This document shows positions 1,854-52,734 of a stretch of DNA of 64,000 nucleotides, piece by piece; positions within the stretch are counted from its first letter, which is position 1; each line of letters begins with the position of its first letter. Both the position numbers and the translations under genes were made by a program. Below the pieces are notes generated by a model that saw only the letters and a program-made list of their open reading frames with translations, ran no database searches and was not told the origin of the DNA. Origin of the DNA: Lepidodermella squamata (taxonomy: Eukaryota; Animalia; Gastrotricha). The DNA lies in contig JBLDXI010000042.1 of NCBI GenBank assembly GCA_047495785.1, positions 930,001 through 994,000 of the forward strand, written 5' to 3'.

Positions 1854-2475
1854 ATGATTAAGCTAGCTCTACTCATCGTTGTAATGGTAACATTGATAAA
1901 GATTCACTTTTATCTTTGTTCATCTCATTGCTTTTCAGGCTATCGTTGCTAAGGATGCCCTGGCAGAGACTAGAACCGTTGGTCAGCCATGCAAAACTAG
2001 ACGTGGCTCCGGAACCTACCAGCAAATTGGGGCAGGGTTAATAGCCTGCAAGCTACCTGATACAGGGCGTGAAGATGCCGGTTTGGAGGAAGCTTCACGC
2101 GAAAAGATCGTTGGTCAGCCGTGCAAAAGTAAACGTGGCTCCGGAATCTACCACAAAATCGGGAAAGGTCCAATTTTCTGCCATGTATCTGAAAGGGGGC
2201 GCGAAGATGCTGGTTTGGAGGAAGCTTCACGCGAAAAGATCGTTGGTCAGCCGTGCAAAAGTAAACGTGGCTCCGGAATCTACCACAAAATCGGGAAAGG
2301 TCCAATTTTCTGCCATGTATCTGAAAGGGGGCGCGAAGATGCTGTTTTGGAGGAAGCTTCACGCGAAAAGATCGTTGGTCAGCCGTGCAAAAGTAAACGT
2401 GGCTCCGGAATCTACCACAAAATCGGGAAAGGTCCAATTTTCTGCCATGTATCTGAAAGGGGGCGGAGGGCGTGA
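1854..2475 (+). CDS. Secreted multi-peptide precursor 1: signal + 4 C-x18-C cationic peptides with acidic EDAGLEEASR spacers
   Basis: Exon 1 1854-1886 (MIKLALLIVVM), 52-bp GTAAC..TTTCAG intron, exon 2 1939-2475: AIVAKDALAETR-TVGQPCKTRRGSGTYQQIGAGLIACKLPDTGR-[EDA(G/V)LEEASR-EKIVGQPCKSKRGSGIYHKIGKGPIFCHVSERGR]x3. AATAAA at ~2589. Two paralogs have the same exon structure. Confidence 0.85.
2068..2465 (+). repeat. Three near-identical 132-bp (44-codon) coding tandem repeats
   Basis: Units in register at 2083, 2215 and 2347 differ by only a few bases. Confidence 0.95.
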
Positions 2476-2773
2476 AGTAACCGTCCTCAAGGCGTGAAAA
2501 AGTGAGATGATGAGAAGATGTTCCTTTGTAAACTGCAAGCAGTCTACACACGTAGCAAAGCTATGATACGTACATTTCGTGATTGATGAATAAAAAGCTA
2601 CGTTATTGAAGATTCGTTCCATCGGTGAAAAAAAAATTGTTGATAGGTCACCACGATAACATGAATTAATAAATTTATCGTTACTAAATCATGTTAAGGC
2701 GGCTGACTGATTCGCAAAATCGATTCTTGGAATTGATATCGGCTCGGTAATATTAACTTAATAATATTAAGTA

Positions 2774-4739
2774 CCGTATTTCTCGAAAATTTACCGCGGG
2801 CTATATTTATGAACAAATGATTTTTGATTCGGGTTGTATTAGGGAGTGGGGATATATACGGGTGTGCTGTTTAATTGCGAATCATCACAAAAAGCCGCGA
2901 GCAATTCGTATTAAGACGACGTTTTTAGATTGTTTTATTTGTCGATTCAGTGAAAAAGTGAAAAAGTTAACAATTTTTTGATCAACCAACAAAATCAATT
3001 ATCAATAAAAAAAAAGTCAGGTTCACTTTCGTCATCGTTGAAATCATCCAGGCTGATGACTTGATCGAACGTGTCGTTTGATGCCATCTTCGAAGCCAGT
3101 AGCTCTCGGCCAGCAGCGCACGGCTTTCCATCCTTGAAGCACGAGATCTGATCATCCTCGGAACCATCGAGTGCGTTGGCGATTCCGCAGAAGTAAAACG
3201 ACCGACGGACAAGACTGGTGGGCAGAGCATCCCAAGAAGCCAGAATCCACTCGCAGATGAGCGGGAGAGGAGGCGCTTTCGGGTTGCCGCCTTTGGTCAC
3301 GTCCTGTGCAGCTGGACTTGAAAGCCAGTCCGTGTAGAGTTGTCGCATGTGAGCTTTGAAAGGCTGGTTCCAGCAGAGGTCAGCTGGTTGGACAAATTTC
3401 GTACAGCCGCCTGGAACGATGGCGAGGTCGAGCTTCATGCCAGCGCACTTCTTCTTGGTAGCCTCGCTGATGTGACTTCTGAACGAATCCCAAACCATGA
3501 GACGCCGATTTCCGAAGACATCTCGCCCGACAAAAGTGAGGCTGTCATTCATCCAAACAGTCCCTGATGAAATTCAAAAGATTAAAATTTTCATTGATCT
3601 CCAGAACTTACCCTTGCAAGCGATGACCATCTTTGAATTGAAACGTTCCAGCTCTTTTACCGGTCGCTTCCGGTTAAGAAGAACAAACGGTTTCAGCTTT
3701 GTGCCGTCAGAACGAGCAGTGAGCATTACCGTAATGCGTGACTTGTCGTGCCCAGTAGTGATCACAGAGACCTCCTTGCTACCAGTTCGCTCGATCGTAG
3801 TACCAGATGGCCAGTCCATCCATACAGCTGTTTCGTCTGCTGCCACGATGTTTTGCGGCAAGTAACGATGGTTGATTCGGATTTGCCGAATGTAGAGAAC
3901 AAACTTGACCAGCTTATCGATGTACGATTCCGGGACTTTCTGGCATTGAGTAGTTCGCCTTCTTAAACAGAAATCGTACCGTTTGAGGAAACGATCGAGC
4001 CATCCGTTGCTGCCTTTGAATGATGGATCGAGCTGTTTTGCTTTCAGCAAAATGCTGCGCCTTGAGACGGGACGGCGGGCGAGGCGTTGCTCGGTTATCC
4101 ATTCTTCCATAACCTGATCGAGGTTAGGGTAGGCCAGCGGTCGACCGGCGCCAAGGAGACGATGACGCTTTTCCATGCCAGCGAACTGTAGAATCAGCAG
4201 CTGTTGGTGATGTTGTAGCCATTCCTTGACGCATCGACGATCGACCTTGAAGACTCTCGAGGCATCGTTTGCTGAGATTGCTTTTGCATGATCAGCCACG
4301 CGAATTTTGTATGCGAGGGAATACTTGCGGTGCCGCTTTCGCTTGTCTTCTTCGGACACCTGGACGGAATCTTGAAGACGATCAGGAGAGCCAGCCATCA
4401 TCGATTCCAGAAGGTTAAAACGATTAAGAAGGATATGAAAATGTTAAAATAAAACTCTGTGTCTCAGCTAGTGAATGCTGAATGGGCATTTTCTGCTGGC
4501 TTATGAATGGTGCCAAGATCAGACGTTGCGAAGCTGCTTACGCGATAGCTAATCACTGATTACGATAATGCGTCATTAATAAGGCTTTTCTTTTGTTCCA
4601 ACGCATGCTTCGCCCAAATTAAAATAGCTGTGGTACAATTTCGAGGCCTGGGTTAAATATGAACAAACGATTTTTTCGTCGGGTTGTATTAGGGAGCGGG
4701 GATATATACAGGTGTGTCGTATATTTTCGAGAAATACGG
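2774..4739 (-). mobile_element. Complete pogo-family (Tc1/mariner superfamily) DNA transposon
   Basis: Terminal inverted repeats (TIRs) CCGTATTTCTCGAAAAT at 2774 and 4739, each flanked by TA. A ~60-bp subterminal direct repeat lies at ~2808 and ~4658. The element encloses a transposase gene. Confidence 0.92.
2995..4401 (-). CDS. Pogo transposase (Brinker-like DBD, CENP-B HTH, DDE_1), 2 exons, apparently intact, ~450 aa
   Basis: ORFs 4401-3612 and 3563-2995 are joined in frame by a 48-bp GTAAG..CAG intron (ACKG|TVWMND). Motifs: KYSLAYK, FKGSNGWLDRFLKR, ADET, VWDSFRSH, VQPADLCWNQPFK. Confidence 0.9.
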
Positions 4740-4742
4740 TAT

Positions 4743-5225
4743 CCGTAAAATCCAAAATTAGAGCGCAGGGCCTTATATTTTCAAATCAACTGAAAACTGA
4801 GGGCTTAATTCAGAAGAGGCCCAATCGTAGGCTGGGGTTTTATTTATTCAAATGCTCAAAGACTCCAATGCTAAAATGAAAATTAGCAAAAATGTAACAA
4901 ATTGAAAATGTGAGGTAGACAAAAAAGGTAAAACTGAACATTGTTAGCTGTTTCGTTCTCGGATAATCATGAAAAATGATTTCATTAGGGGGTTCTTTAT
5001 ACACGATTCGATCATCTTTCACCAGCGATTATTATAATATTTTCAATCACACAGTTGGAACGCAATTTAAAATTATTGGTCAAGCGAGGCAAACTAAAGC
5101 TTTATTTGCACCCTGCGGTACTAAAATACGCCTGGGGACTTATTCGCTCAATCATCGTGAAGACTGAGGGCTTAAACCGGGAGAGGTTTTATTACAGACC
5201 TGTGGTCTTATTTCGGATTTTACGG
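4743..5225. mobile_element. Non-autonomous pogo-like MITE abutting the pogo element
   Basis: TIRs CCGTAAAATCC(A/G)AAAT; the internal motif ACTGAGGGCTTAA occurs near both ends. Confidence 0.6.
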
Positions 5226-9126: not shown

Positions 9127-10008
9127 TAATACAAGAAGATTGCCCAATCTGCTGTTTATTCCGGGTTTTCTTGCCTCTCCTTACTAAAATGTAACCCGCA
9201 ATTTGCCGGCAATTTTCACAGGGATTAATGCATGTTTTTCAAAGGTAGTTAGTTGTTTTCAGTCGTTTTCCATCAAATTTAGCGAGTCTGTTGAAACTTC
9301 GCTGACTGGCAGAGGCTTCATCCGTTGCTACTCCCCTTTCCCTCGCCTTCTTGCTCTCAGTTGACGGTGCTTAAGCTTATTTACCAAGTGGCTAGACGTG
9401 TTTTGTAAATTTTCTATAAGGCTGTACTGCAGCGCCGTTTTCAGTCAAGTTTCTCGACAGCTGATATCATTCGCGAACCTGTTCTCCGGGCCCGTAGCGC
9501 TACCTTCAGCTCACTTTATCAGTTTGCATTTCACTTCGAGTATGTTGCCATAGAAATTGCCCGTCCAACAGTGCAGCAGAGAACGTTACGCCATCCAACA
9601 TGATTCGCATGATTCACATGAACATCCACTCTCGAAACCCACGCCATCTTAAACACCAGCAGACACCTCAAGCTTAGGGTTAGTAAGAAAGCCTCGCCCT
9701 ACTTTGCTAATTGTCGGACGCTCAAATCCACGGCTTCATCAATGGAAACGACGAACGACGAGCTACCGATATTCGAATACCCCGCTAAATTGCTGAATCT
9801 AAACATTGAATATTTTCCCAGTCTGATCGAACTCAGGTTACGTTAATGCTGTGGATCTTTCCGATTCTCTTGACTGGACTCTCGTCAATTATCTCATTAT
9901 GTACAGCAGTTTGATTACGGCCTTCGAGTCTTCAACTCACCATAATTATTTCGTTTCCAACTAGATTTAATTTTACGTTGTCGATAATTTTTGTGGAATT
10001 TCAACATC

Positions 10009-10425
10009 ATGAAGCTGGCTCTAATTATCCTTATAGTGGTAAGATACATAACGATTCCCGTTTATATCGGTCATCAAATAATCATTGCTCTTAAGGTTAA
10101 GGCTGTCGTTGCTGAAGCAGATGATGAAGCTGATGATGACATAGGTGTATTTCTAGACAGTAGAACCGCTGGCCAGCCATGCAAAACTAAACATGGCCCC
10201 GGCGTTTACGTGAATTTGAAGGATCCTGCAACATACTGCAGGATTACTAAATTCTCGTGGAAAGCGCGAGAAGAAACCGTCTTGCAGGAAGCTTCACGCG
10301 GACCAATCGTTGGCCAGCCATGCGCAGTAGGTAAACGTGGCACCGGCATTTACGTGCAGACGCGCCCTCCAATGATCTGCAGATTACTTCAAAAAGGCCA
10401 AAAAGGGCGTGAAGAAACCGCCTGA
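10009..10425 (+). CDS. Secreted multi-peptide precursor 2 (2 C-x18-C peptides)
   Basis: Exon 1 10009-10038 (MKLALIILIV), intron to ~10101, exon 2 AVVAEADDEADDDIGVFLDSR-TAGQPCKTKHGPGVYVNLKDPATYCRITKFSWKAR-EETVLQEASR-GPIVGQPCAVGKRGTGIYVQTRPPMICRLLQKGQKGR-EETA*. The 3'UTR and AATAAA are homologous to gene 1. Confidence 0.85.
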   Translation: MKLALIILIVVRYITIPVYIGHQIIIALKVKAVVAEADDEADDDIGVFLDSRTAGQPCKTKHGPGVYVNLKDPATYCRITKFSWKAREETVLQEASRGPIVGQPCAVGKRGTGIYVQTRPPMICRLLQKGQKGREETA

Positions 10426-11207: not shown

Positions 11208-11780
11208 TTTTCCTTTGGCTCGTGTCCGGAGTGGACGCTGAGGATTTCGAGTGTGGCGCTTATCCGCTTCCTTTTACTCCTGAAAGCAAAGTTAACATTC
11301 ATGGAGTACAACCATGGAGGTCCCCTGGATGGTTCGTCTGTTAAGATTGGTCTCATATAATCAGAACAGGATACTTGTTAAAGGTCTTGCTGGAGATATA
11401 TTTTAAAAACGAATTATCTCTCTTTTATTGCGATGCTTCTCTCATCTCGAAGCAATGGCTGATTACGGCAGCTCATTGTGTTCGGAATTACAGAGGAACG
11501 CCAATTTTGTAAGTTTTCGTTATTTCTTCTGGGTCCTGGAATGTTCTGAACTTTCAATATTCAGGATCAAAGCTATGCTGGGACGCCACAACATCAGTCT
11601 CTGAACCTGATACTAAAATAGCGAAACATGTAAAGCCTGTTTTATATCTTAGCTAGATTACCTGAGATACCGAGGAAGCTAGATCTTGATGTTCTGCCAA
11701 TACAGCGAACGACAGCGAAACGTGCTCGGGGGACATTCCGGGCATCTACAGCAGAGTCAAGGTTCTTGATTAGATTACTG
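11208..11780 (+). pseudogene. Decayed N-terminal trypsin-like domain of a tandem protease gene
   Basis: Signal-like FLWLVSGVDA, then ECG, a frameshifted EVPWMVRL, FYCDASLISKQWLITAAHC and LGRHNISL*. TCSGD is fused directly to IPGIYSRV, so the catalytic Ser region is deleted. In-frame stops are present. Confidence 0.7.
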
Positions 11781-11819
11781 AAAGCACCGATGTTCCAAGC
11801 CTGAGAAGTACTCCTGATC

Positions 11820-14599
11820 AGTCCTGTTACGTACCGGTCGTTGAAGCAGGTTTCGTGAGCCGAGTGGACGCGGGTACATCAGCTGATACAGGCGAAGTTA
11901 TAAGGCCAAGAACTACCGTGGCGAAAGGAGAGGTCGTAATCGTTAAATGCAACCCAGGTCATAACTACTCCGCTTCTATCAATTTCGCAACCTGCTTACC
12001 TCCTTTTCGCCCGGCGATTAATGGAAGATGTAGCCCTAGTTAGTAAGGTCAAAATGAGGGAAATCTTCCTGATGACCCAACTTGTGCAAGTTCCGAATCC
12101 TATTCGATTTGTCCACCTGGGAAAAGCTAACCTCATGACCTAGCCCAAGCCCAAACACTATCCCTATCAACATCCCTGAGCCTAGCCCTAACCCTACACC
12201 CTAAACCTAACCCTAACCAAAAACCAAAATCCAACCCCAACCCCAAACCCTAACCCAAACTGAAACCCTAATGAAACCCGAACCTTAACCCTTACCCTAA
12301 CCTTACGCTGACTTCTAACCCTTGACCTTAACCCTTATCTTTCAACCCTTTTCTAACCCTTACCACTAATCGTTGATGAATGGCCTGTTAATACTATCCT
12401 TATTCTTAGACTGTGGCGAGATTCCTGTCGTAAGTAATGGGTACTTGACGAGCTCGAATATGTCCACATCGTACTTGTCCACGATGACTTTGGTCTGCAA
12501 TCAAGGCTATCGAGTCGTCGGTCAGGCTACCAGCCGATGCCAATCAAACGGCAGTTGGTCTCCGCCAGGCAGCTGTGAAGCTTTAGGTTACATTTTTCAT
12601 TACGCAGTGATTGCTCAAGCACTAACAATGTTCTCAAGTTTGCAGACGACCACCGGCGATACGAAACGGTGCCGTATCTTCCGGGCTCTCGAGCGTAGGA
12701 GCAACGCGAAGTGTGTCCTGCGATCGAAATTACGAGCTACAAGGCAATGCGGCGATATCATGCCTCTCAAACTTGACATGGTCTCAGCCTGGTTCTTGCA
12801 CCTTACGGCAACAAGGACCTGTAAGTTCAAACATAAATATTTATCTGCCCCATATCGTTATTTTCATTTTGCCACTTTTGCCAAGAATTTAATCCATTTT
12901 CTTTAAATTCAACCATCAGGGAGAATTTTGACTGCTTACTTGCTTGCTGACGTATTTTTAACCTAATGAACCGAAATTACTGAATTTAACGGAGAGACCC
13001 TGATCAGTAATTTTCGGTATTTTAAGAGGTTTGACTTTATTTCTCCGGATTTGTTTTAGTTTCAAGTTTCAAGAAGTTTCGGAGTGTCTACTATCGCAAC
13101 AATACTTATTTTGGAATAGGGCCAGGGTTAGGGTTAGGGTTGGGCTCAACAAAAAATATCAGATACTGTCATTTGGGGCAAATTCTCGATCTGCCCTCTC
13201 TTGGATGTTGTAGTTTCTCTTAAATAGTAAATAGAAAATAAATAAATACTACTTGTTAGATAGGGGTGGCGAATTCGCTCTTTGCTCAATTGATTTCCCT
13301 GGCCTCGGTATGTAAGTACTGTTAACAATTTCGATAGCTAGCAAAATTCTCAACATTTTCGTCCTTTGGCCCTATTTTCAAGCATTTCCACATTTATTGG
13401 TTGTAAGTAAATTTATAACAGCAATTCAAAACGATGAAGTACCATATTGATGCGAATTTGAAATTATCTGATTATATATCTTTCCACTAATGTTTCATTT
13501 TTCATGGCGATCAGCCGTCCGGCGAGCCGTGCATAGTCCCAAGTAGACCGAATTCCTTACTCAAGCTGAAATCAAATGGAAGAACTGTCCAGGCAAATTC
13601 TCTCCCGACTGGAAGCGTTATTGTCATTGAGTGCTTGGCAGGATTTGCTTTCACGATGAGACAGTCTCGCTCAGAAAGCACTTGTCAGGCGGATGGCGAA
13701 TGGAGCTACGAGCTGCCGAGATGCGGAAGAGCAGAAGGTGAGGGCAAATCTTAGCATTTCAGCTTCTACTAATCTTGTGAATTCAAGCCAACTACAGCGC
13801 TTGCGGAATTGGACTGGCAGCAAGAGTTATGGGCGGAGCTTACGCTGAACCAGGCGAACTTCCATGGATGGCTAGACTTGAAATCACGTATACCGGTCAA
13901 AACCAGCCGGTATACTGCGGCGCTTCTCTCATCTCCCCATCATGGCTTCTATCCGCAGCTCACTGCTTGCCCGTTAACAGCAATGGCTTAGTTGCGATAA
14001 TAGCGGAAATTGGCCGGACTAATTTTTCTAGCGAAAGTGAAGCAAGCCAATATGTTCGACGCGTATCGAGAAACTTCACCATCCATCCTAATTACAGCAA
14101 ACTGGATAACTACAACTTCGACTTTGCCCTGATTAAGTTGGAGCCGCCTGTTATCTTGAAACCAAGCGCTCGCTTAATATGCCTGTCCGACTCGTCAATG
14201 TGCGACGAAACGTATTCGAGGGATAACCAACGCGTCGACAGTTGTGTTCAAGTATCAGCGGCTGGCTGGGGTACGACAGAACGGGGCGAGCGATTGTCGA
14301 CTACTTTGAAAAAAGTCAACTTGACCATGGCATCGGCTGAGTCTTGCGAAATTTTGGGAGGCTACGACAGCATAACAGATGCTCAATTGTGTGCTGGGGC
14401 GGAAGTCAGCAAAGTCGATACATGCACCGGCGACTCTGGCGGGCCTTTGATGTGCAGGCGAGACGGCTATGGGCCTTATCATCAAATAGGAATTGTTTCT
14501 TTTGGCCACTCGTGCGGCGTGGCCAATTCGCCTGGAATATATTCCAGGGTTTGCCGAGTCGTAGATTGGATCAGAGGATACATTTTAACCCCGAACTGA
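11820..14599 (+). CDS. CCP/Sushi(x4)-trypsin serine protease (multi-exon); C-terminal protease domain intact
   Basis: Sushi exons at ~11820-12040, 12410-12587, 12646-12820 and 13515-13737 (e.g. CNQGYRVVGQATSRCQSNGSWSPPGSC). Activation site CGIGLAAR|VMGG, triad AAHC/DFAL/GDSGG, and S1 Asp (DTC), i.e. trypsin specificity. The 5' start is uncertain because the upstream domain is broken. Confidence 0.75.
12140..12365. repeat. Degenerate (CCCTAA)n telomere-like tract in a protease intron
   Basis: Many CCCTAA/ACCCTAAC variants; a short GGGTTAGGGTTAGGGTT also occurs at ~13125. Confidence 0.7.
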
Positions 14600-16593: not shown

Positions 16594-19448
16594 AGATGAT
16601 TTGTCATCATTTCCCGTCAAGAACAACCTAAAACATGTTGTCATTATTTTCATCCTGAACTTCTTCATCACACCCTCCTCTTCTATGGAAAGCATTCCTG
16701 AAAGCGACGAAGCTGAAACCTCGTCAAGGAATGAGGCTGGAAGAAAAGCCAGGCGATATCGTGCGTTTACTGTTGCCTTCAAGCTTCGAGCGGTTGACTT
16801 CGCGAAGGAAAACACCATCGCGGCTTCAGCAAGAAGATAGAAAATCGATCGAAGATGCATCGGTCAATGGATTGGAAAACATCTCGAACTAAATGCCATG
16901 GCATTCGCTGGTTTCGCCAAGCGGGCTCGTCTTCCGGGTGCAGGTCGCAAACTTGGCTTCGAAGGGCTGGAGCACGAACTCCTGGAATGGATTTTGGCTG
17001 AACGCGCCGCGAAGAGGCCAGTTTCACGTCGCCGTATCTTGTTGAAAGGTCAACGGCTGCTTGCCAATTTCAAAGGTCATCATTCATGGTTGAGTCGATT
17101 TCTTCAGCGGAACAACTTTAGTCTTCGTCGAAAAAGAACGCAATGTCAAAAACTCCTGGCTTTCTTCCTGGATAAGCTGGTGTCATGGTGTCATTCGTCC
17201 TCTTCATTCGACAGCTGCGAAGAAGGAACGACTACTCAATGAAGAACATGATTTGCTGCTGATGAAACTGCAGTATGGCTCGATTCAAGCCCTTCAACTA
17301 CAGTCGAAAACACTGGGGCCAAGGAGTTGCCAATTTTGACAACTGGTCACGACAAGGCAAGAATAACCGTCATGCTGAGTGCACGTGCTGACGGCACGAA
17401 ACTGAAGCCTATGGTTTTGCTGAACAGAAAAGGGCCAATGAAATCTTTGGAGAAATTCAGCTCGAAACTGCACATCTTATACAAAGGTAGCTAATATTTT
17501 ATACTTTCTAAAGAATTTTTTTCATTTCACTCAAAATTTCAGGAACAATCTGGATGAATGACCTTACGACCGAGTTGTACCTCAAGGAAGTCAGTGGCCA
17601 AAAAGTTTTCGGTAGGTGTCGGTTGCTGGTCTGGGACGCGTTCCGATCGCATATCTCTGCCGCGACTCGAAAGGTGCTTGCTTCTCTGAAAATCGATCCA
17701 GCAGCAGTGCCGGGCGGGAGCACCAAATTTATTCAGGCACCGGAACGCGCCCTTCAAGGCGAAGATTTGTCATCATTTCCCGTCAAGAACAACCTAAAAC
17801 ATGTTGTCATTATTTTCATCCTGAACTTCTTCATCACACCCTCCTCTTCTATGGAAAGCATTCCTGAAAGCGACGAAGCTGAAACCTCGTCAAGGAATGA
17901 GGCTGGAAGAAAAGCCAGGCGATATCGTGCGTTTACTGTTGCCTTCAAGCTTCGAGCGGTTGACTTCGCGAAGGAAAACACCATCGCGGCTTCAGCAAGA
18001 AGATAGAAAATCGATCGAAGATGCATCGGTCAATGGATTGGAAAACATCTCGAACTAAATGCCATGGCATTCGCTGGTTTCGCCAAGCGGGCTCGTCTTC
18101 CGGGTGCAGGTCGCAAACTTGGCTTCGAAGGGCTGGAGCACGAACTCCTGGAATGGATTTTGGCTGAACGCGCCGCGAAGAGGCCAGTTTCACGTCGCCG
18201 TATCTTGTTGAAAGGTCAACGGCTGCTTGCCAATTTCAAAGGTCATCATTCATGGTTGAGTCGATTTCTTCAGCGGAACAACTTGAGTCTTCGTCGAAAA
18301 AGAACGCAATGTCAAAAACTCCTGGCTTTCTTCCTGGATAAGCTGGTGTCATGGTGTCATTCGTCCTCTTCATTCGACAGCTGCGAAGAAGGAACGACTA
18401 CTCAATGAAGAACATGATTTGCTGCTGATGAAACTGCAGTATGGCTCGATTCAAGCCCTTCAACTACAGTCGAAAACACTGGGGCCAAGGAGTTGCCAAT
18501 TTTGACAACTGGTCACGACAAGGCAAGAATAACCGTCATGCTGAGTGCACGTGCTGACGGCACGAAACTGAAGCCTATGGTTTTGCTGAACAGAAAAGGG
18601 CCAATGAAATCTTTGGAGAAATTCAGCTCGAAACTGCACATCTTATACAAAGGTAGCTAATATTTTATACTTTCTAAAGAATTTTTTTCATTTCACTCAA
18701 AATTTCAGGAACAATCTGGATGAATGACCTTACGACCGAGTTGTACCTCAAGGAAGTCAGTGGCCAAAAAGTTTTCGGTAGGTGTCGGTTGCTGGTCTGG
18801 GACGCGTTCCGATCGCATATCTCTGCCGCGACTCGAAAGGTGCTTGCTTCTCTGAAAATCGATCCAGCAGCAGTGCCGGGCGGGAGCACCAAATTTATTC
18901 AGGCACCGGAACGCGCCCTTCAAGGCGAAGATTCGCGAGCTCTATGCCGAATGGTTCAGCAGTGGCAAGCAGGAACTGACCAAGGGCGGCAATCCGAAAG
19001 CGCCACCTCTGGAAGTGGTCTGCGACTGGATCATTCAGGCCTGGGAATCTCTAAGCGCCGAACTCAACGTCAAGTCTTTCAAGCGATGTGCGATAACCGT
19101 TGCGACTGATGGCTCGGAGGATGATGAAATTCACTGCTTTCGTCCTGGTAAGACCTGTGAAGCTGGTCGCGAATTGTTGGCTCAAAAAGCAGCGAAAAAT
19201 GACCCGGTGTTGTTGATAATCGAGGAAGATGCCGAGGAGAATAAAAAAAAATGAAAACAATCACTACGAAGAGGACATTTGACAGTTGTTTCATTTTTAA
19301 ACTCTTTTTTCAATTCATTTTAATCTGACGACGATAGATTCAAATAAATAATACCACAGCCTGCAATTGTACCTCGCCTGTAATAAACCCTCACTTTTTT
19401 CTTGGTTAGAAACTATAAAACAACGGCACCCAATTTCGGTTTTTACGG
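16594..19448 (+). pseudogene. Defective pogo transposase with a 1166-bp internal tandem duplication
   Basis: Homologous to the 2995-4401 transposase (same intron position KG|TIWMND, ADET, WDAFRSH). It has a premature TAG after ASARR and frameshifts. 16594-17759 is repeated at 17760-18925. The right end is ...TTTTACGG+TA at 19448; the left TIR was not found. Confidence 0.88.
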
Positions 19449-29800: not shown

Positions 29801-30759
29801 TGATGATCCTTATCCCATCCTGAAACAATTTAGGATGGGATAAGGATATGTTGACCATATTTTAACTGCTTTACTTTAACTTTAGTACTTATATGTCGCG
29901 TAAGTTCCTACGTTGATCAATTGTTGATCAAATATTCAATTATAGTAGCAGGGCCGTTCATCGGTGCAACAACCAACCATCAACCATCAACCAATAACCA
30001 ATACCCTCAAACATTCCTCAAATTATAATTTAGCAATGTAGTATTGATTTAGCTAGCAGGGGGAACTTAATGGATAAAGCCTGTTGATGGATGAGAGGAA
30101 TTTGCTTTAAAATCAGGTTTTGGATAGGTTCTACATTAGTTAATGATTACCGGGCAGATTACTGCAAAATAGCAATCGGGCACCGCGTTGGCATTGATGT
30201 TATGATATGGCAAATGATGACGAGACTGGATTGCGCTGAAAGTTAAACCATAGCTACTAGCTACATCGCAGAATACGATGAGCCCGAGCAGTATCTGAAA
30301 TAACCTGCATAATGGTAGCATACAAACTCGCAGATATCAGTAGAAGTTCGGAAATAATCGCAATCGGGCATAAATGCCATCCCATTGCCCTTTTCATAAT
30401 ATCAAGCGAGGTTTATATACGGAGGAAAATACGGAGGCAACTTCGTAGTGAAGGCGTGTCTTGAAACACTACACCTACAATTCATGAAGCAACTGCCGAT
30501 ATTAAAATGAAGGTTGGTTAGTTCATGAGATTCAGTTTAGTTTCCGGGTATTTACGTAAATAATCGTTAATCACTTCATCAAAGTCGATTTTTTCGCTTC
30601 CGTGCGCGATTGAAATACAGGGTCAATAAAAAGTCTTGTCAAATGCGAAAAAGGATTCACCAAAAAATGAGCACGAGTTTTCTTCCTCGTTTTATTCACA
30701 AAATAAAGTAAAAAATTACACGAGAAAAAAAAATCCAGTTGTTTATTGTTTATTGTGCT

Positions 30760-30831
30760 CAGACGAACCGGGAATCGAACCCGGGCCGCCGCGGTGAAAG
30801 CGCGGAATCCTAACCACTAGACTATCAGGGA
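30760..30831 (-). tRNA. tRNA-Glu(TTC) with a non-pairing 3' acceptor strand (likely pseudogene)
   Basis: Reverse complement TCCCTGATAGTCTAGTGGTTAGGATTCCGCGCTTTCACCGCGGCGGCCCGGGTTCGATTCCCGGTTCGTCT. Confidence 0.75.
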
Positions 30832-30907
30832 GATATGAAATTAAATGCTTGGATTATGTGATAAATTTTTAATAGCTTGTTGAAATTCAAATGAAGAAAA
30901 AACGAGT

Positions 30908-30982
30908 GGGCCCGTTCGGGAATTGAACCCGTGACCTCTCGCACCCGAAGCGAGAATCATACCCCTAATAGACCAACGGGCC
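30908..30982 (-). tRNA. tRNA-Pro(CGG) with a 3-nt D-arm insertion
   Basis: Reverse complement GGCCCGTTGGTCTATTAGGGGTATGATTCTCGCTTCGGGTGCGAGAGGTCACGGGTTCAATTCCCGAACGGGCCC. Confidence 0.75.
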
Positions 30983-31051
30983 TGCTATAGAAAACCCTCG
31001 TGGGCTTCTAACATGGCAATTGGGATACACCAAAGACAGCGCAAAAAGGTA

Positions 31052-31124
31052 CGCCGAGACCCGGGATCGAACCAGGGACCTTTAGATCTTCAGTCTAACG
31101 CTCTCCCAACTGAGCTATCTCGGC
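31052..31124 (-). tRNA. tRNA-Phe(GAA), intact
   Basis: Reverse complement GCCGAGATAGCTCAGTTGGGAGAGCGTTAGACTGAAGATCTAAAGGTCCCTGGTTCGATCCCGGGTCTCGGCG. All stems pair and a T5 Pol III terminator follows. Confidence 0.93.
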
Positions 31125-31807: not shown

Positions 31808-33490
31808 AATTTTGTAAGTCTAATGTCCATCTATACCTTACAAATTAGGACTTCGATCTAAATTTGTATACAGCGATATCTATACCGAAGTATTATCGGA
31901 GTCGTCCAATTGAATGTCTATTGATTTTGATGTCTACGAAAGGGACCCATAGAGCTTCTCTGGTATCTGGTATCTTGGACATCATTGGTGCACAAACAGA
32001 AAACGACACCTTTGCTTGATTGATTGTACAATAGTCAGCAGGTGTAAGCTATCGAAACTTGTTCGAAATTTCCTATTCCGTTGTGTATCGGGACAATCGT
32101 TTGATGCGCACCGTCCAATCTTGTACTTATACTTTTGATGGCTTTACCAGTCGTTTGCCTCGCTTTTGCAATATTAACTATGATTGAATAGAGTATAGCA
32201 AAGAGCATTAAGTGTGTTAATAGAGCAATAGAGTCTATTGCTCTATTAACACACATCGATTCCTGCAAAAGCGAACGTCGTAAACATGGATCTAAATCTG
32301 ATAAGAATGGTGCTTAATTCGCCGTTTTTTCACTGAAAAGCAGCTGTAATCTAAAAGCGGATCTCGCGTCCACCTAACGGAGCAATTGAAATGCTCAATG
32401 TATAACCGCAGAGCTAATGGCTTTCGATGATTTCGATGGCTAATGCTCGGGGCAAGCCTTTGGTACTAGCATATATAACGCGATCAAGGGTTCTCAAACG
32501 CGGGAGAGGAATAAAGGTGCCTCTATGCTCTATGACTTGTATAAGGCTTGAATAAGCGGAACAACGTTATCACTAGTAGCAATTATGTCGATCGAATGAC
32601 GAATAATTAATTACCCGATCCTATCAATTATGATCTATCGTGTGCTTTTTTTTTCTTTTAATGTTGTCCTAGTGACGTGACTGATAATAAGCCATTGCTA
32701 CGCGAGGTTAAATCTTCAAGGATATTAGCAATGATCTTTTGTAAGCCTCCTTCTCCGAGGAGGGAGGCCAAATTTTGCCCGTATTGACGGAAGCATGTTT
32801 TGGCCGGCACGTGTGCAGTGAAGCGTTATTATTTCGCCGAAAATCAATGCTAACCGTAGGCTTACGGGCAGGCCAGAGCGCGTATGGGTAGAATTTGGAC
32901 TCAGACCCTAACGGAACGACATCAAAAAGAGGTTGATAGTCATCATGGTTGTAGAGAAAATGGATTTCAAAGTTTACGTGCGAAAAATGCTTTTCTGAGT
33001 GTTTTACTGCATGAGCGATAAATCACCCACTCCATTGATTCTGATGTTTTTCTCAGGGCAATCTAAGGTGGGGAGTCTTGCTAGATAGTCAAACATTTTA
33101 ATGGAATCATGCGCGATTGTCTCTACGACAACCTGAATCTTGAATCTTGAATCGATAACACTTTGGAGGCAAATCTGAGGCTTTCCATGTTCTAAGAGGA
33201 CGGGAGCATGCTAGAGGTCCAAAATTCGGAAATTTAAAATCATCGAGAAGAACATCTTTAAATCCACGAATCTTCCTACAGGTGTGCACGCTTTTTGCGA
33301 TTTGCTAGAAAATACCGAAGATTCGCCAAACCCCCTTTTTCACTTGTTAACAGCCACTTGTTTTGATAAACTAACGGTGGCTAAAGAGGCGACAAAGATG
33401 GCACCTAACGGCAGTGTTAATTCTATCATAAAACACTTCTGTCACATACGAAATACGAATAAAAAAGCTTTCATCATTTTCTATGAAAAC

Positions 33491-36400
33491 ATGTTTTGCC
33501 TAACTCTCAACAATCCAGCTTGCAGCGAAAGGTTTGATTGAAAAACATCGAGTCGAAAATTAAATTGCTTGCAATTTTCAGCCCTGAAGTCGGCGGCAAA
33601 GCGAGAAATCTTGCAATAATCAAACCGATAACTGATTCATTGGGTTCTAGCATTACAGTTCCAGATGGATTCGTCGTCAAATCATCAGCATTTGAGTGTT
33701 TCTTGCAAGAAAATACAGAGATCAATCATAGAATCTCACAACTGGCCAATCGAAAGAATCACGAAACTCTTGAAAAATTGAGCAATGAAATAGAAAGTAT
33801 CATTTTGAAAGCTGAATTGAGCCCAGCGCTGGTCGAGGAAATTTTCACAAATTTGCATAATTTATTCGGCGAAAAATGGCGCGAATCTCCTACGGCAGTT
33901 CGGTCATCTGGAATCGGCGAGGATGGTTCCGATATATCAAGCGCTGGGCAATTGGAAACATTCCTAGGTGTCGAAGGAGTTGAAGTCCTTCAAGCAATTA
34001 AGAAATGCTGGGCTTCGAATTACTTCATTCGAGCTATACAATACCGTCGAAATTTCGGAGCAGCAATCATCAGTCCGATGGCTGTTGTTGTTCAAAAGCT
34101 GGTCAAGGCTGATATTGCTGGAGTTTTGTTCACGAGAGACCCAGAAAATGGCTCGACGGCTCGAATGGTTATCAACGCAGCTTGGGGAATGGGCGAAAAT
34201 ATTGTTTCAGGCTACGTCCAGCCTGATACGATAACTATCCAGAAGCTTAACCTCGAAGGTTCCAAATACAAAGTCATGTGTGAAAAACAAGTTGCTGGGG
34301 ATCTTGAAGCCAGCAACAAGCGGAAGGAATCGGATTGCTGTTTATCATCCGATATTATTGATCGTTTGTACAAACTTGGTACAAGAATCGAAAAGGTAAT
34401 TCAGGATTTTCAGGATAATTTGATTGATTTCTGTGATTGATTTCAAGATTCTTGGTGGCGGATGTGATGTCGAGTTTGCAATCGAATTAAGCCAACCAAC
34501 GCCTGTTATTTCGATTCTCCAAGCTCGGCCGATAACAACTGGAGATATGGAATCTGAGTGGGAGCTACAATATGAATTTGATAGCCCTCTTGCCAGCGAG
34601 AATGAGATCATTTCAACGGCGAATGTTCAAGAAATGTGCCCTGGGACTCTGCCACCGCTCAGTGCTGCTTGCCTCATGGAATTCGGGCTGGATGCTCTCG
34701 AAAGTTTCCAAAGCAAAATCTTTGTGAAACCAAGACGTCGGTTTGCGATACCAAGAGTAGCCTCCATTTTCCACCAACATCTTTTCATAAATTGGACGGT
34801 AAAATTGCAAAATTTAATTTTCAAAAATTCAGAATTTTTTCAGCTTTTTGGTAGCGGCCTTACCACTGATTACCAAAAAAGTGTAGCTGAAATGGCGGTA
34901 TTTGGCCGAAAGCGAGATGACATTAAACTGGAGGAATTTATCGAAACAAACGATATGACCAGCTTTTTCTGGCGATTTTGGGAATCGATTTGCTCCTGGA
35001 AGCTTCGGCTATTCCCTCCGAACAACGCCGAAGTCTTTGCTGAGGAGGTCGATAGCTTCGAATTTGGGACCACAAATGACCCTAAAAGACTCATTGAAAA
35101 CGCCAAGGAAGCTATGGCCCTTACGAAAAAGATGTGGGTGGAGCATATCAACCTGTCAGTCGCCGCTACTACATACCCTGTTATTATAATGACGATTTTA
35201 AACGACAAATTAGGTAACCATTTTTTACTAGAAGAATTGAGCGTAGATTTTGTGAATTTTAAGACTGGACGCCTCAGATTTATGAAGACCTCGCAACTTT
35301 GTTGAGCGATTGTGGAGACGTTTTTTCAGCCCAAGTTCCGACTATGCTGGCCCAGATTGCGGATTCTATCAATTCTGATAGCTTGGGTAAGCAAATCTTC
35401 GAGAAATCGAACACTGAATCCGCAAAATGGCTCATGTCGCCTGATTCTGGAGATTCGGGTACTTTGTTCAGAACGTTTCTCTCAAAACACGGCCATCGTT
35501 GCATTTCTGAGGTTAGGAAGTTATACACTTGAAAGATTTTTCTAGAAATTTTCTTTGAAGGTCGATATCCGCGAAAAATCTTGGAACGAAATGCCGGAGA
35601 AAGTTGTCGAAGCTCTAAAAATGATGACGGCTCAATCACGCGGGAAAGGTCATAAGAGATCCCCGGCATCTGATCCTAACCAAGCTATCGACCTGCTGAA
35701 AACTCCCGTTAATTTCGTCCAAAGGATGATATTGAGGTTTTTAGTCCCAATCGCTCGTAAAGCTGTCGGAAGGCGGGAATGGTCGAAAAGCTACGCCATC
35801 AAGGCGACAGATAAGCTGAGGCAAATCTACCGCCGTTTGTCTCAGGTTCTAACAGAAAGAGGCCACCTGCCCGATGAGGATCTGCTTTACTTCTTGGATC
35901 CTCGAGAAATAGAACAGCTTTTACTGGAACCTAGCCCTAAACTGGTGGCTAAAGCTATTCGAAGGCGTAAACTGAACTCAGCTTTCATCGAAATGAAGTT
36001 TTCGGAAATATACCGTGGGCATCCCTATCCGGTGAGTATAAGGCTATTGAAATATTGTGTAGTTTTGTAATTTTATTTTTAATACCTTTCGATAAATTCG
36101 AATGTTTAATGCTTAGGTGGATGAAAATTCGAAAAAATCGACCACTTATGGTGAAAGAATAGTCTTGAGCGGGATGAGCGTTGGAAAGGGCTACGTCACT
36201 GCAAAAGCCAGGGTTGTATCAAAATTGGAAGATGCATCTAAAATTGAAAATGGCGACATTCTGGTTGTTCATTGCACCGATGTTGGTTGGACGCCGTATT
36301 TTCCGTTAATTTCTGGACTGGTCACTGAAATCGGAGGAATGATATCTCACGGTTGGCTGAAACACCTATTTAATCCGCATCTAAGAGATATTTTTCAGGC

Positions 36401-36538
36401 GCTGTCGTTGCCCGAGAATTCGGTCTGCCGTGCATAGTGGGCTGTTCAAACGCTACTAACGCAATCTCGACTGGAGATTCAGTCACTATCGATGGAAAAT
36501 TGGGGCAAGTTGAGGTTGAGAAGGCCAATCTTGACTAG
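33491..36538 (+). CDS. PEP-utilising enzyme of the rifampicin phosphotransferase / PigC-like family (ATP-grasp, central domain, C-terminal phospho-His swivel), 8 exons, intact
   Basis: Exons ~33491-33531, 33582-34395, 34448-34798, 34844-35213, 35264-35511, 35561-36031, 36117-36351 and 36399-36538 splice in frame with GT-AG introns. Motifs: VGGKA, VPDGFVV, AVRSSGIGED..SSAGQLETFL, MAVVVQ, DVEFAI, LQARPIT, FLSKHGHRC, TDVGWTPYF, GGMISHGAVVAREFGLP (catalytic His). Further upstream exons cannot be excluded. Confidence 0.9.
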
Positions 36539-45571: not shown

Positions 45572-46534
45572 TATAATGTTAAGCCTTAAACTAGTTAACA
45601 GTGATTTGTATTTGATTTCGATTTTAAATTCAGAGCAACTCGGTTAATTTGATATTCAAACCACATCATTGAAAACCTATGCAGGATCACGTATGCAGAA
45701 TTCCGTGAATGGACCGTTCTAAAACTGGTAGGCTCCAGCCTGAAGAAAATTTGATCGAAAATAAGTGAAAAGTGGGGTTTGGCGAAATTTTTGACATTGT
45801 GAGATTTTGGTGCCACTTTAAAGGTCTATTAACGAGGAGTCGAATGGTATAAAAAAGGCGTTGATATTCATCAGGGTTACAGAGAAAATGGGCTACAAAG
45901 TTTAGGAGTGACAATTTCTAATTTCGAAAAATGCTCGCTTAAAATAGTTGAGTTTCCAAGAATCGTCCCTCTCAAAGTCAACATGCGTTTTGCGATTTGC
46001 TGGAAAATACAGAAAATAAGCCAAACGGGGTGGTGATCGTACGGACCTTAACTTAAGTGGTAACTTTTCGGATAAGTTCACTTTGTTAAGTTGACCTTTA
46101 ATTGGGGTGTGATCGAAACTCACCTTATCAAAGGTGCCCTTAGTTAAGGTCCACTTAAAGGGGTGTGATCGAACCTTAACTGGTTTTTGGACTGTTTCGA
46201 TCACTCAACTTAAATTTTCTTGGAATTAAAAAAAAAAGATAAGGAATGTGATCGAATTTAAGTTGATCTTAAATGATTGCGTAACAATGACTGCGTAATT
46301 ATTTCAAAGACAAAAAAGTGCGATTTAATTTTCAAGTTTTCAATTCAATGTTTTAATTTTGATGATTGGATTGTGGCAACTGTTTTCGCTATATTATACA
46401 GCTTGACTCACGGATTTTTATGAAATTTTTCAATCTTCCCAATTGAATGAATGGTTGATTGACTGATTGAATGATTGGTGTTTATGATTTCTTGATAATA
46501 GGGTCGATCCTTGGTTTTTTAGCTGTTCCTAAAC

Positions 46535-47593
46535 ATGCCGAAGTATTCTTTTTCCGAATTTTTCAATGATGTCAAGGAATCGCCTGATGATTCGCTTGGC
46601 CCAAGTGATAAAGATAAGGTTGATGTATCGTCTTCATCCAGCAAAAAGCCACGAAAAGCGCGCGATCCTAACTATTCAGCGGCTGATCATGGTGTTTTCA
46701 CCAACCTTCTAGAAGAAAAATTGGACGAATCAAACGAAAAAATGAGCTTCACTTTTGCGGATATTTTCTACGGTCGCTGCGCAAACGACCTGAAAGTGCG
46801 AGCATCTTTGCCCCAATTAAAGGCAAAAGGATGGAGCAAATTTGCCATTCGCTACAATCCGGTAGCCGACGTCAATCGTGACGAGACAAGTCTCAAAAAG
46901 CATTTCGAAAATAGGTTTTTGGAGAAACCGAAAGCTGAGATACGGGGGAAAAAAGCGGATTCCAAGAAGACCGGTGGAGGAGTTGGCTTGGCTCTCAAAC
47001 CCATGTCCAAAGAAGCGGAAATGTTGGAAAAGCACGCGCCTCATAAAGTTCACGCCGTTTCGAATATTACTGACAGTTCAGCTTTGACTGTCGTCAATAA
47101 GGCAGGCGCTCCAGCAACAATTGGAAGATCAGACGTTTCTCCTCTACCATCAACGAGTCAACAGGAAGATAGGTCAGAAGAGTCAAGTACAGCAACTGAC
47201 TCGGATGAGAGTGGTGCCGAGGAAGATCGCGATACAGCGGAAGCTAATACCCAACCAGAATTGGCAAAATCAAATAACGATAATGACCAGGAAATCGAAC
47301 AGCTGATGAAGTTCGCTAACAACCGCGAGAAAAGTGCTCCTAGCTCTAGCAAAGCCGATGAAATTAAAGCTCTTCAAGTTGAAAAGAGCCGCGGTTTACA
47401 CAAGAAAGACCGCGAGAAATCTTCATTCGATTTGTTTTTGGAGGAACAAAGCGCCATGCTGAAGGAAGAGCATAAAAGTACGTTGTATACGTCTGCTTCT
47501 TTGCAAAAATCAGCCGAGGCAAGTACGAGACTAGCCGATTTGAAGGCAAAACTTGTCGAAAAGCAGTTGGAAAAAATGAACAAGGGTGGCTAA
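46535..47593 (+). CDS. Harbinger ORF1 Myb/SANT-like DNA-binding protein
   Basis: 352-aa ORF with RDPNYS..F..LL, KGWSKFAIRYN...RDETSLKKHFEN, KKTGGG, an acidic linker and a C-terminal coiled coil. Confidence 0.85.
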   Translation: MPKYSFSEFFNDVKESPDDSLGPSDKDKVDVSSSSSKKPRKARDPNYSAADHGVFTNLLEEKLDESNEKMSFTFADIFYGRCANDLKVRASLPQLKAKGWSKFAIRYNPVADVNRDETSLKKHFENRFLEKPKAEIRGKKADSKKTGGGVGLALKPMSKEAEMLEKHAPHKVHAVSNITDSSALTVVNKAGAPATIGRSDVSPLPSTSQQEDRSEESSTATDSDESGAEEDRDTAEANTQPELAKSNNDNDQEIEQLMKFANNREKSAPSSSKADEIKALQVEKSRGLHKKDREKSSFDLFLEEQSAMLKEEHKSTLYTSASLQKSAEASTRLADLKAKLVEKQLEKMNKGG

Positions 47594-47789
47594 AACTCGC
47601 TTAAAATGGCTCGATGATTTCAAAATTCTGATAATTAATTCCTGTACATAATAATTGCTCAGCCTGAATAATAACGAGTCTTCATTACGATATGACTATT
47701 CTGTTAAAAATTATAAATAAAAGTGTAAAATTGCAGAATTTTCCCACCAGCTATTAGGTTTATAAAACTTAGTTTTTTGGTTACCGTTA

Positions 47790-49016
47790 ATGGCTGCGTT
47801 TTTTGAATTTCAAAACGTACGCCGAGGACGCTTTCGCGGTCAGGTACGAATGCTGCGGTTGTTGGAAGCCATTGGTGAAGCTCGACAACCTATGCGATTC
47901 GAAAGATTTTTTCACGACAGAAGAGACGAGATGAACCGGTGGAATGATACCGAGTTTTTCGACCGGTACAAGTTGACCAAAGAGGTGGTTATTCGATTGG
48001 AGCAGTTCTTGGAGCCTGATCTGCTTCAACGTACTACACAACGAAATCACGCGTTGTCGCTGAATCAGGTCATCATATCAGCCTTGCACTATTACGGAAG
48101 TGGCTCAAAACAGAGGATTGTAGGTGAGTTCGAAGTTTTATGGGGTTTGATCTTGAAAATGTCTTATAATCTAAAGGTTCGGACCTGGGTTTACACCGTA
48201 CAACTGTTACAAAGAATGTCAAGGCAGTAACTCGTGCCCTTGTCGCTCACTTCCATGACTACATCAAACTACCTGCAAACCAACAAGAAGCCAACCGAGT
48301 AATGACGGACTTTCATCAATATTCCGGCCTGCCTGGTTGTGTAGGTGTCGTGGATGGCGCTTTACTCAAAATTAGGCGCCCCGGAGAACTACCAGACCCA
48401 GAATCATTCATGTGCCGAAAAGGTTTGTGAATCATTTATTGACTGTTAATGCGAAAAAATGAAACAAAATTTAGGTTTCTACGCAATTAACAGCATGCTT
48501 GTATGCGACCGGTACTTCCGATTAATTTTCGCTGTAGCGCAACACTCTGGCTCAACTCATGACGTCGTTGTTCTAAATTCGACGAACTTGGGCGAAATTG
48601 TGACGCAAATGTACCCGGGTGGCCATCTTCTTGGCGACAGTGGATATACACCTTGCCGTGAATGGCTAATTACTCCTTTGGCCCAAGGCGATGCGAATAC
48701 GCCCGCTCAGCTTGCATTTCAGCGCGCTTTCTTGCGAGCTCGTTTTCTAATCGAGCGGCTGATTGGTATACTCAGGGCCCGTTTCGCCGTCCTTCGTGTC
48801 GACGATAACGAAATTCGACTGAATATCCACAACGCACCGAACATGTTTCTCGCATGTTGTGTACTTCACAATATTTGCGTTGAACACAATTGTCCTGTAA
48901 AAGAAGCATGGATGCCGTCTGATGATGATATCCTACGAGAGATGGGTCCATTCATTGGTGGCGCTGACGCCCGCGGTCGAGCAAAGCGCGATGCGTTGAT
49001 TGCCCGCTTTGCATGA
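47790..49016 (+). CDS. Harbinger (HARBI1-like, DDE_Tnp_4) transposase, 3 exons, intact
   Basis: Exons 47790-48123, 48177-48422 and 48475-49016 splice in frame. Motifs: LHYYGSG, GCVGVVDG, CRKGFYAIN, GSTHD, LLGDSGY, RFLIERLIGILRARF, CCVLHN. Confidence 0.9.
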
Positions 49017-49682: not shown

Positions 49683-49683
<1 letters not shown>

Positions 49684-51480: not shown

Positions 51481-51486
51481 ATACTT

Positions 51487-51747
51487 GTTTGCCGCTATTG
51501 CTGTTGTCATCCCGGTTGCCAAACGGACGTATCAGCTTGATATGATACCTTGAAAAATATCCACTCTCGATGCATCCTCTCTCGGTCTTTAACATTGATC
51601 CGCGATATGTCTAGAATTATATATATCATAGAACCTTCCGATTACTAGAAAAGGCTTCCCTCTCTTTTCTCGGAATTAGCCTCACTACCTTAACATGTCG
51701 AACTTTTACCATTAGAATGAACTCTTGGTTTTGCATCTTCCTTACCC
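51487..51747 (+). pseudogene. Inverted EB-gene promoter plus the first 10 codons (MNSWFCIFLT)
   Basis: Reverse complement of the 40500-40790 promoter/start region; truncated after codon 10. Confidence 0.7.
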
Positions 51748-52417
51748 TAAAAAAGTTTTCGAAAAAGTTGTTGAGGACCCATGGCCAAGGTGAATTCACC
51801 TCGGAGGATTATAGGCTTATTTTCATGAAAACATCCAGCTATTTGAGCTATAGTAATATGCTAGCTAATAGCTATCTAATTTGCAAAGCTTTGAGGTAGT
51901 TTTAAGTTGGTAGATGAGTAATTGCCATATCATGCTTCAAGTGTTCAGTACATCACGCTATAGAGTGATCATCCACGAGCTTTTCTGTGTGCACAGCAGT
52001 TCAATAAAATGTCATCTACAGAAAATATAGAAAAAAAACACGCATCAAAACATTGTTTCCACGTGATCTACCCCTTGTGGAAATGACAAAGAACGCCAAG
52101 CCGCTTTATCAACGAGCAGCCTCGACAAGGCGGCGGCGAATAACGGCACATAGCGAAGAAGGAAATGGATCATGTGATATCGTGATGTGTGCCCATCAGT
52201 TCAATGGCTGGTATTGTTTTGATGTTATGATGTACTGGCCTCGTGACGCTCGAAGATGATTAGCTAAGATCACCCTCAAGCTATTATATGTTTTTGTGTG
52301 TACAGCAGTTCAATGACTGGAAGCGAGCTTTTCGAGTCGTCGATTCCCCTCAAGTTTATTCCTTAATTTTTCAACTTAAATTAAACGTTCAATTCTCACT
52401 ACTTTTCTACTCGAATT

Positions 52418-52734
52418 ATGGCGAAGCTAGCTCTAATTATTGCTGTTATGGTGAAATTATATTGTATAGAAGCTATATGCATCAATTAATTGCTTCTTTT
52501 CAGGCTATCGTTGCCGATGTTGCTCTGTCAGTAGCTGTCGGTACACCATGCACATCCCATGGTGTACCCGGCATATACGTGAGGTTCCAGAACAGTCCTG
52601 TGTACTGCAGAACTTCGGCCAAGCGTGAGGAAGCCGTCTTGGAAGAAGCTGCTCGTGGACTCTGTCATACCGCTGGCGGCAGGTTGGGTCACTGGGTGCA
52701 ACATGGCAACCGAAGTCCGACCTGCGAAATCTAA
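52418..52734 (+). CDS. Secreted multi-peptide precursor 3 (2 disulfide-loop peptides)
   Basis: Exon 1 52418-52450 (MAKLALIIAVM), 53-bp intron, exon 2 AIVADVALSVAVGTPCTSHGVPGIYVRFQNSPVYCRTSAKR-EEAVLEEAAR-GLCHTAGGRLGHWVQHGNRSPTCEI*. Same intron position and phase as genes 1 and 2. Confidence 0.85.

Follow-up and report, generated by a model that had tools for sequence, protein, structure and literature searches.

A probably undescribed family of two-cysteine peptides encoded in multi-copy precursors of the gastrotrich Lepidodermella squamata

What purpose is served by predicted secreted precursors in which several small two-cysteine peptides alternate with acidic, arginine-bounded spacers? This question is raised by three paralogous genes on the forward strand of a stretch of 64,000 nucleotides from Lepidodermella squamata (GenBank assembly GCA_047495785.1, contig JBLDXI010000042.1, positions 930,001 to 994,000; in the following "the window"). 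Their start codons lie at 1854, 10009 and 52418 (genes 1, 2 and 3), and in each gene a short phase-0 intron follows the signal exon, and there is an AATAAA signal; the original prediction of three genes with a common signal exon and phase-0 intron was confirmed in position. The tentative answer is that they encode lineage-specific host-defence (antimicrobial) peptides, eight of 25–35 residues, which would be freed by arginine-specific cuts (probability roughly 0.45). This answer is built upon observed features (the gene models, the motifs in the linkers, the G-R ends of units and the pattern of selection) and upon a processing scheme taken by analogy from spiders (PMC6832493, available part).

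Exon 1 of each gene (30–33 nt) encodes M-(x)-K-L-A-L followed by hydrophobic residues, and exon 2 starts with A-[IV]-V-A in all three; a search of the window for the signal-exon pattern gave matches at these genes only. Signal peptides were called by eye, and the exon 2 translations are named P0001 (gene 1), P0003 (gene 2) and P0002 (gene 3). In aligned columns, the intron of gene 1 is 78% alike to that of gene 2 and 70% to that of gene 3, the 3' untranslated regions (UTRs) of genes 1 and 2 are 85% alike, and the upstream DNA, intron and 3' UTR of these two genes together range from 78 to 85%. AATAAA follows about 90–120 nt past the stop codon in all three genes. The intron of gene 2 is in frame and free of stop codons, and this gene can also be read as a single open reading frame (ORF; 10009–10422). 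The upstream motif TGTACAGCAGT occurs exactly three times in the window (1762, 9900 and 52299), each time with the ATG about 90–120 nt downstream. A possible 5' UTR intron was noted in genes 1 and 2 (1771–1815 and 9909–9964), with GT right after TGTACAGCA and AG about 40 nt before the ATG; gene 3 is without this AG.

Genes 1, 2 and 3 contain four, two and two two-cysteine units, respectively, eight in total and six of them distinct, with a Cys-Cys spacing of 18 in seven units and 19 in one; the recount agrees with the numbers given at first. The consensus then proposed, G-[QT]-P-C-x(4-5)-G-x-G-x-[YW]-x(9)-C, fits five units and misses three, whereas all eight conform to a relaxed version, C-x(6-7)-G-x-[YW]-x(8-9)-C. 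The pattern G-[QT]-P-C-x18-C had seven matches in the six-frame translation of the window and none in each of 100 local shuffles, and a profile of the six distinct units, run against the same frames, recovered the eight known units and no others. Pairwise identity among the distinct units is 21–50%, with four invariant columns (G, first Cys, G, second Cys); units 2–4 of gene 1 represent an exact triplication of the core at the DNA level. Predicted mature lengths are 25–35 residues, of which 20–30% are large hydrophobic ones, and predicted net charges by unit are +4, +6 (three times), +5, +7, +2 and +1, the +1 unit of gene 3 containing three His. For the oxidised peptides, average masses of about 3117.6, 3537.1, 3765.3, 3748.5 and 2685.0 Da were calculated. 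The description as cationic holds for the six units of genes 1 and 2 (+4 to +7) and is weak for gene 3. Five of the eight units end in G-R, which had been suggested as a possible amidation signal.

The internal linkers are uniform: all five have 11 residues, are acidic (net -2 to -3) and carry an invariant Arg at both ends. By the definition in the available part of PMC8290080, a linker is anionic and starts with Arg and a Glu within three residues (inverted processing quadruplet motif, iPQM); it ends in an Arg which is preceded by Glu at -2 to -4 (processing quadruplet motif, PQM). All five linkers conform at their start (R-E-D-A three times, R-E-E-T, R-E-E-A) and at their end (E-A-S-R four times, E-A-A-R), and the claim of acidic spacers with sites of these types can be upheld. 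The site before the first unit is irregular, being E-T-R in gene 1 (a PQM), D-S-R in gene 2 (Asp, not Glu) and missing in gene 3. Gene 1 ends in G-R-R-A, with a linker-like remnant just behind it in another frame, and in gene 2 the linker remnant R-E-E-T-A directly follows G-R, which suggests that the precursor ends of these genes are there to be trimmed. Compared with the linker of gene 3, the other linkers showed synonymous differences of 0.61–0.88 and nonsynonymous differences of 0.08–0.12 (in two pairs, Fisher p was 6e-5 and 0.01); this purifying selection shows that the frame is translated and that the linker sequence matters.

An uncut secreted repeat protein of structural, adhesive or binding function, with the acidic spacers as plain linkers, would also account for the repeats, since tandem near-identical repeats are common among structural proteins. 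It is rendered improbable by the invariance of both linker Arg residues, by the fixed linker length and by the G-R ends of five of the eight units, and the remnant in gene 2 and the G-R-R of gene 1 are sensible only as trimming sites. Summed over all readings, processing into free peptides is considered likely.

Multi-copy precursors, acidic spacers and amidation are hallmarks of neuropeptides. All three features would agree with a role as endogenous signalling peptides that resemble neuropeptides or hormones and are released by proprotein convertases, and one K-R and one R-R site are indeed present. Most sites, however, have only a single Arg, set in a Glu context; the C-termini of the units, where the family motifs of neuropeptides usually reside, are not conserved; and a loop divergence above the neutral level (see below), together with the absence of a homolog in the searches, is unlike neuropeptides. 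A signalling role is quite unlikely. The linkers agree with the spider scheme, in which, according to the available part of PMC6832493, cuts occur after each Arg, a carboxypeptidase trims the ends, exposed Gly is amidated and the spacers mask the charge of the peptides. The same review, as far as available, describes unambiguous PQMs as rare in animals other than spiders, and the term PQM was found in the literature, by title, nearly always in spider work, plus one sea anemone.

An AlphaFold run with the six units as alignment yielded five all-beta models with strands at residues 2–11, 14–21 and 25–29 (pLDDT 86, with a range of 83–86 over the five models; pTM 0.49); a single-sequence model of P0003 was poor (pLDDT 45). 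Strand 1 contains Cys9, and strand 3 contains Cys28. From the strand register in the secondary-structure string, the two Cys would flank the invariant glycine of strand 2 (Gly16), and their disulfide could cross it. The analogy to hairpins of the arenicin type, which had been drawn initially, was not borne out, since the model is a three-stranded sheet and large hydrophobic residues are few.

Relatives were sought in two protein collections of 5.8 billion and 1.84 billion sequences, both thin in animal proteins. P0001 gave 5643 candidates, none at E<=1 (protein lengths 97–312), and the unit alignment A2 gave 631, none at E<=10 (lengths 41–191). A HMMER scan of P0003 against the 1.84 billion representatives produced a single match, P0037, which was rejected as a homolog: it is a translated 61-residue tandem repeat lacking the motif Cys, with a best pairwise score of 22 bits. 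Pfam returned only two matches below the cutoff on P0001 and none on P0002, gene 2 or any of the six units; matches to PDB sequences were chance matches only; and an exact look-up of the three window proteins in a protein collection found none of them. Two tries with the ESM Atlas gave no usable match, which shows neither absence nor novelty. Foldseek found no match at E<=0.001 among PDB structures and viral models, and in a VIA fold search the best Z was 3.4 (rmsd 2.4, 33 aligned residues, an unrelated domain), with none of 48161 entries at Z>=5; with a chain this short such absence is no surprise, and it is not evidence of a new fold. Among metagenome contigs 382 pattern matches were obtained, none of which was confirmed, and the DNA pattern had none. 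No described relative turned up in the literature, most subscription papers lying outside its coverage; peptide words matched for one linker word alone, in papers unrelated by title; and the unit motif was not found in the searched parts of the supplements of PMC10414684 and PMC8290080. The family had been put forward as unrecognised, and the searches made here retrieved no described family by sequence or fold; the peptide family is probably undescribed.

Several known systems resemble parts of this arrangement (the papers cited are used in their available parts). The binary and complex precursors of spiders (cupiennins, latarcins, oxyopinins, lycosins) have the same linker and precursor architecture (PMC8290080, PMC6832493). 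Their units, however, are mostly linear, amphipathic and helix-forming, whereas here two invariant Cys occur in all eight units and the model is all-beta; no sequence similarity to spider venom linear peptides was found. Arenicin precursors carry a BRICHOS prodomain; no Pfam match to BRICHOS was obtained in the present precursors, which, with fewer than 200 amino acids, have no room for one. Arenicin-1 and -2 of Arenicola are likewise invertebrate cationic peptides of beta structure with one disulfide, but they are two-stranded amphipathic hairpins of 21 residues (PMC10672452), whereas the units here have 25–35 residues and three predicted strands, are less hydrophobic and occur in multiple copies. 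The opening G-x-x-C ... G-x-aromatic presumably resembles that of the sea anemone APETx/BDS/crassicorin group, so the unit could be a stripped-down analogue of the beta-defensin-fold peptides of anemones. Peptides with this fold (big defensin C-domain; APETx/BDS/crassicorin) form a twisted antiparallel sheet, as the units here may do, with six Cys and three disulfides in contrast to the two Cys found here (PMC10672452, PMC6835510); Pfam and sequence searches gave no match to them, nor were they among the matches listed in the fold searches. Class 9a toxins of sea anemones (Ms 9a-1, Ugr 9a-1) are similar in that one precursor contains several small, homologous, disulfide-bearing peptides whose central loop varies, but they possess four Cys, two disulfides and DP/EP dipeptidyl-peptidase sites instead of two Cys and PQM linkers (PMC9320628). 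The five known antimicrobial groups of nematodes (cecropin, diapausin, CSab, nemapore, GRSP) are likewise secreted, small and partly cationic; none of those in the available part of PMC10506718 has a two-Cys multi-unit PQM-linked precursor, and the Cys-based groups have at least six Cys in a fixed array. Honey bee and plants have immune precursors that comprise several peptides (PMC6832493), and basal nematodes have few recognisable antimicrobial peptides and may use divergent ones (PMC10506718).

The first half of the unit, from G-x-P-C to the aromatic residue, is mostly under purifying selection, while nonsynonymous differences reach 0.55–0.80 in the loop (8–9 residues before the second Cys) in five pairs of units from genes 1 and 2; the aligned noncoding DNA of these genes has a divergence of about 0.15–0.22. 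In neutral simulations all five loop pairs had P <= 0.01 at divergences of 0.22 and 0.30, and the strong loop divergence noticed originally can be restated as an excess of amino-acid change above neutral in these pairs.

For the host-defence peptides the following course is proposed. The signal peptide would direct secretion of the precursor, in which the acidic linkers would mask the cationic units; at each end of a linker an Arg-specific protease would cut behind the Arg, which a carboxypeptidase would then trim off, and the exposed Gly would be amidated in five of eight units. In units 2–4 of gene 1 an internal S-E-R offers another possible cleavage position, and a cut there would cost these peptides their amide. 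The predicted fold of each unit is an antiparallel sheet of three strands, in which the disulfide would link the first strand to the third over the invariant Gly of the second. A scaffold role may fall to the conserved first half and that of target contact to the fast-evolving loop between strands 2 and 3, and the exact triplication of one unit may raise its dose. Since hydrophobicity is low, a specific target on the microbial surface or envelope is more likely than plain membrane lysis.

A number of observations weigh against host defence. The units of gene 3 have a charge of only +1 to +2; a content of large hydrophobic residues of 20–30% is low for a membrane-active peptide; and the 600 nt upstream of each of the three genes contained no NF-kB-like site. 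The case from the loop is weakened by the simulation at a divergence of 0.37, where four of five pairs were above neutral and the fifth had P 0.052, and by the other 10 of 15 pairs (nine with gene 3, and gene 1 unit 1 versus unit 2), in which loop dN was mostly not greater than dS. The loop region was picked after inspection of the alignment, the pairs are not independent, and the loop offers few synonymous sites (about 6), with noisy values (0.17–0.69); near-random loop values could also arise from segment replacement or misalignment. Furthermore, iPQM/PQM processing is documented for venom glands and by analogy would favour venom.

The main rival, though a less probable one, is that the peptides are venom or other gland-secreted effectors on prey or host, directed for example at ion channels or receptors; a protease of the PQM type would then mature them, as it does in spiders. 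Complete iPQM-PQM linkers are the scheme of spider venoms (PMC8290080, PMC6832493, available parts), and class 9a toxins of anemones, whose middle loop is variable, likewise come from multi-copy precursors (PMC9320628, available part). Fast loop evolution and low hydrophobicity would suit a specific protein target, and many other proteins predicted to be secreted are encoded in the window (the EB-module cluster, Sushi-trypsin and the PAN protein), although genomic neighbourhood in animals says little. On the other hand, no toxin family similar by sequence or fold appeared in the searches made, and a unit has one disulfide only. A cationic charge, amidation, a raised dose and a fast loop would suit host defence as well as venom or effector use, and nothing in the present results separates the two.

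A gene for a Sushi and trypsin-like protease (11400–14599, forward strand) is located 1–4 kb downstream of gene 2. It has three Sushi matches (12370–12903 region, 13491–13751) and a complete trypsin domain (13826–14596) with Asp at the specificity position (D-T-C-T-G-D-S-G-G), indicating Arg/Lys specificity; a degraded trypsin-like piece lies at about 11420–11770, and degenerate telomere-like CCCTAA/TTAGGG repeats occur in the introns of this gene (12140–12370, 13120–13145). By its proximity alone, the protease is a candidate processing enzyme. A trypsin-like gene at 2–4 kb from gene 2 could also point to small canonical serine-protease inhibitors, with the residue after P-C as P1; P-C-K, on the edge strand in five of eight units, presumably recalls the reactive loops of Kunitz-type inhibitors. 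No Pfam inhibitor matched, and the variable part is the distal loop while the P-C-K region is conserved, so that inhibition of proteases is quite unlikely to be the function.

A further copy appeared in public DNA. Gene 3 is contained in one identical contig of run X1, which may be related to the source of the window. A second X1 contig matches 52663–52738 with 12 differences in 76 letters, with all three listed changed codons altering the amino acid, and contains E-E-A-A-R a short way upstream, in frame with the Cys; a fourth related copy therefore exists. An X1 contig over gene 2, with six listed differing positions in 64 nt, represents an allele or another paralog. The summed depth was 263 in the bin of the gene 1 repeat, compared to 78–93 in the two preceding bins, which fits a real repeat and is not a copy number. 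Run X2, tried as RNA, was rejected as such, because 23 of 30 bins were covered, including intergenic and transposon DNA, and no splice joint was listed; it was treated as DNA, and gene 3 had no match in it.

Table 1. Positions of the features of the three precursor genes in the window.
Feature	Position	Strand	Remarks
Upstream motif TGTACAGCAGT, common to three genes	1762..1772	+	Candidate promoter/start or 5' splice element
Gene 1 exon 1, N-/H-region of predicted signal peptide	1854..1886	+	11 codons; signal-exon pattern
Gene 1 phase-0 intron	1887..1938	+	52 nt, GT..AG; alike introns of genes 2 and 3
Gene 1 exon 2	1939..2475	+	P0001; signal end, short pro-piece to E-T-R, four units, three linkers, G-R-R-A-stop; 132-nt tandem array, 3.7 copies
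Gene 1 unit 1	1975..2064	+	Predicted mature 30-mer amide, net +4
Gene 1 linker 1	2068..2100	+	11 aa, iPQM R-E-D-A to PQM E-A-S-R
Gene 1 units 2-4	2101-2196, 2233-2328, 2365-2460	+	Identical predicted 32-mer amides, net +6; DNA-identical cores
Gene 1 linkers 2 and 3	2200-2232, 2332-2364	+	
Gene 1 AATAAA	2589..2594	+	Poly(A) signal
Gene 2 exon 1, predicted signal peptide	10009..10038	+	10 codons
Gene 2 phase-0 intron	10039..10101	+	GT..AG; tandem acceptors, AG ending 10095 (57 nt) or 10101 (63 nt)
Gene 2 exon 2	10096..10425	+	P0003; acidic propeptide to D-S-R, two units, linker, remnant R-E-E-T-A, stop
Gene 2 unit 1	10165-10266	+	Net +5
Gene 2 linker	10267-10299	+	
Gene 2 unit 2	10300-10404	+	Predicted amide, net +7
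Gene 2 AATAAA	10516..10521	+	Poly(A) signal
Gene 3 exon 1, predicted signal peptide	52418..52450	+	11 codons
Gene 3 phase-0 intron	52451..52503	+	53 nt, GT..AG
Gene 3 exon 2	52504..52734	+	P0002; unit 1, linker, unit 2; identical contig of run X1 spans whole stretch
Gene 3 unit 1, core	52540-52608	+	Ends K-R
Gene 3 linker	52624-52656	+	R-E-E-A to E-A-A-R
Gene 3 unit 2	52657-52731	+	Cys spacing 19
Gene 3 AATAAA	52853..52858	+	Poly(A) signal

The window has a GC content of about 42% without depletion of CpG, and six of seven located introns of neighbouring genes measure 47–116 nt, four of these 47–52 nt. Introns of 47–57 nt, as seen here, would fit a compact genome of nematode type and speak against that of a spider. 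About 12 cysteine-rich ORFs with EB modules (PF01683), 65–85% alike at the DNA level, occupy 37000–59300 on the reverse strand, and gene 3 sits within this cluster on the opposite strand. A PEP-synthase-like gene with introns (PPDK_N and PEP-utilizers; 33200–36450, forward) has its nearest matches among Priapulus and prokaryotic proteins (31–42%; the best named one, from Priapulus, 41%). DDE transposons of the Pogo/Tc5 type, and a Harbinger-type transposase that may have a partner ORF, were located at 2998–4443 (reverse) and at 16595–19251, 47766–49013 and 46523–47590 (forward); one Pogo/Tc5-type element lies between genes 1 and 2, and one has a near-perfect tandem duplication of 1173 nt. ORFs of secreted or low-complexity appearance without a Pfam match, and a PAN-domain gene, are found on the reverse strand (61403–62008, 62877–63998, 23871–24880, 94–498), including an ORF resembling a small Cys-rich protein at 23871–24300. 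Five tRNA genes or tRNA-like sequences (two for Glu, one each for Lys, Pro and Phe) lie at 26231–31124.

The precursor architecture is already known, and the peptide family, as judged from its sequence, is without a relative in any collection searched. It is conceivable, with considerable doubt, that a non-spider animal has independently evolved an iPQM/PQM polyprotein system which releases new minimal three-stranded venom or defence peptides with one disulfide and a hypervariable target loop; the Sushi-trypsin protease encoded nearby may be the maturing enzyme. Full iPQM-PQM linkers under purifying selection outside the spiders would represent a clear case of convergent precursor processing (cf. 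PMC6832493, available part). As a natural scaffold in which the frame is fixed and one loop of 9 residues is free, the unit should also be of structural interest, and with 25–35 residues and a single disulfide the peptides are cheap to synthesise, which makes the question of their function directly testable.

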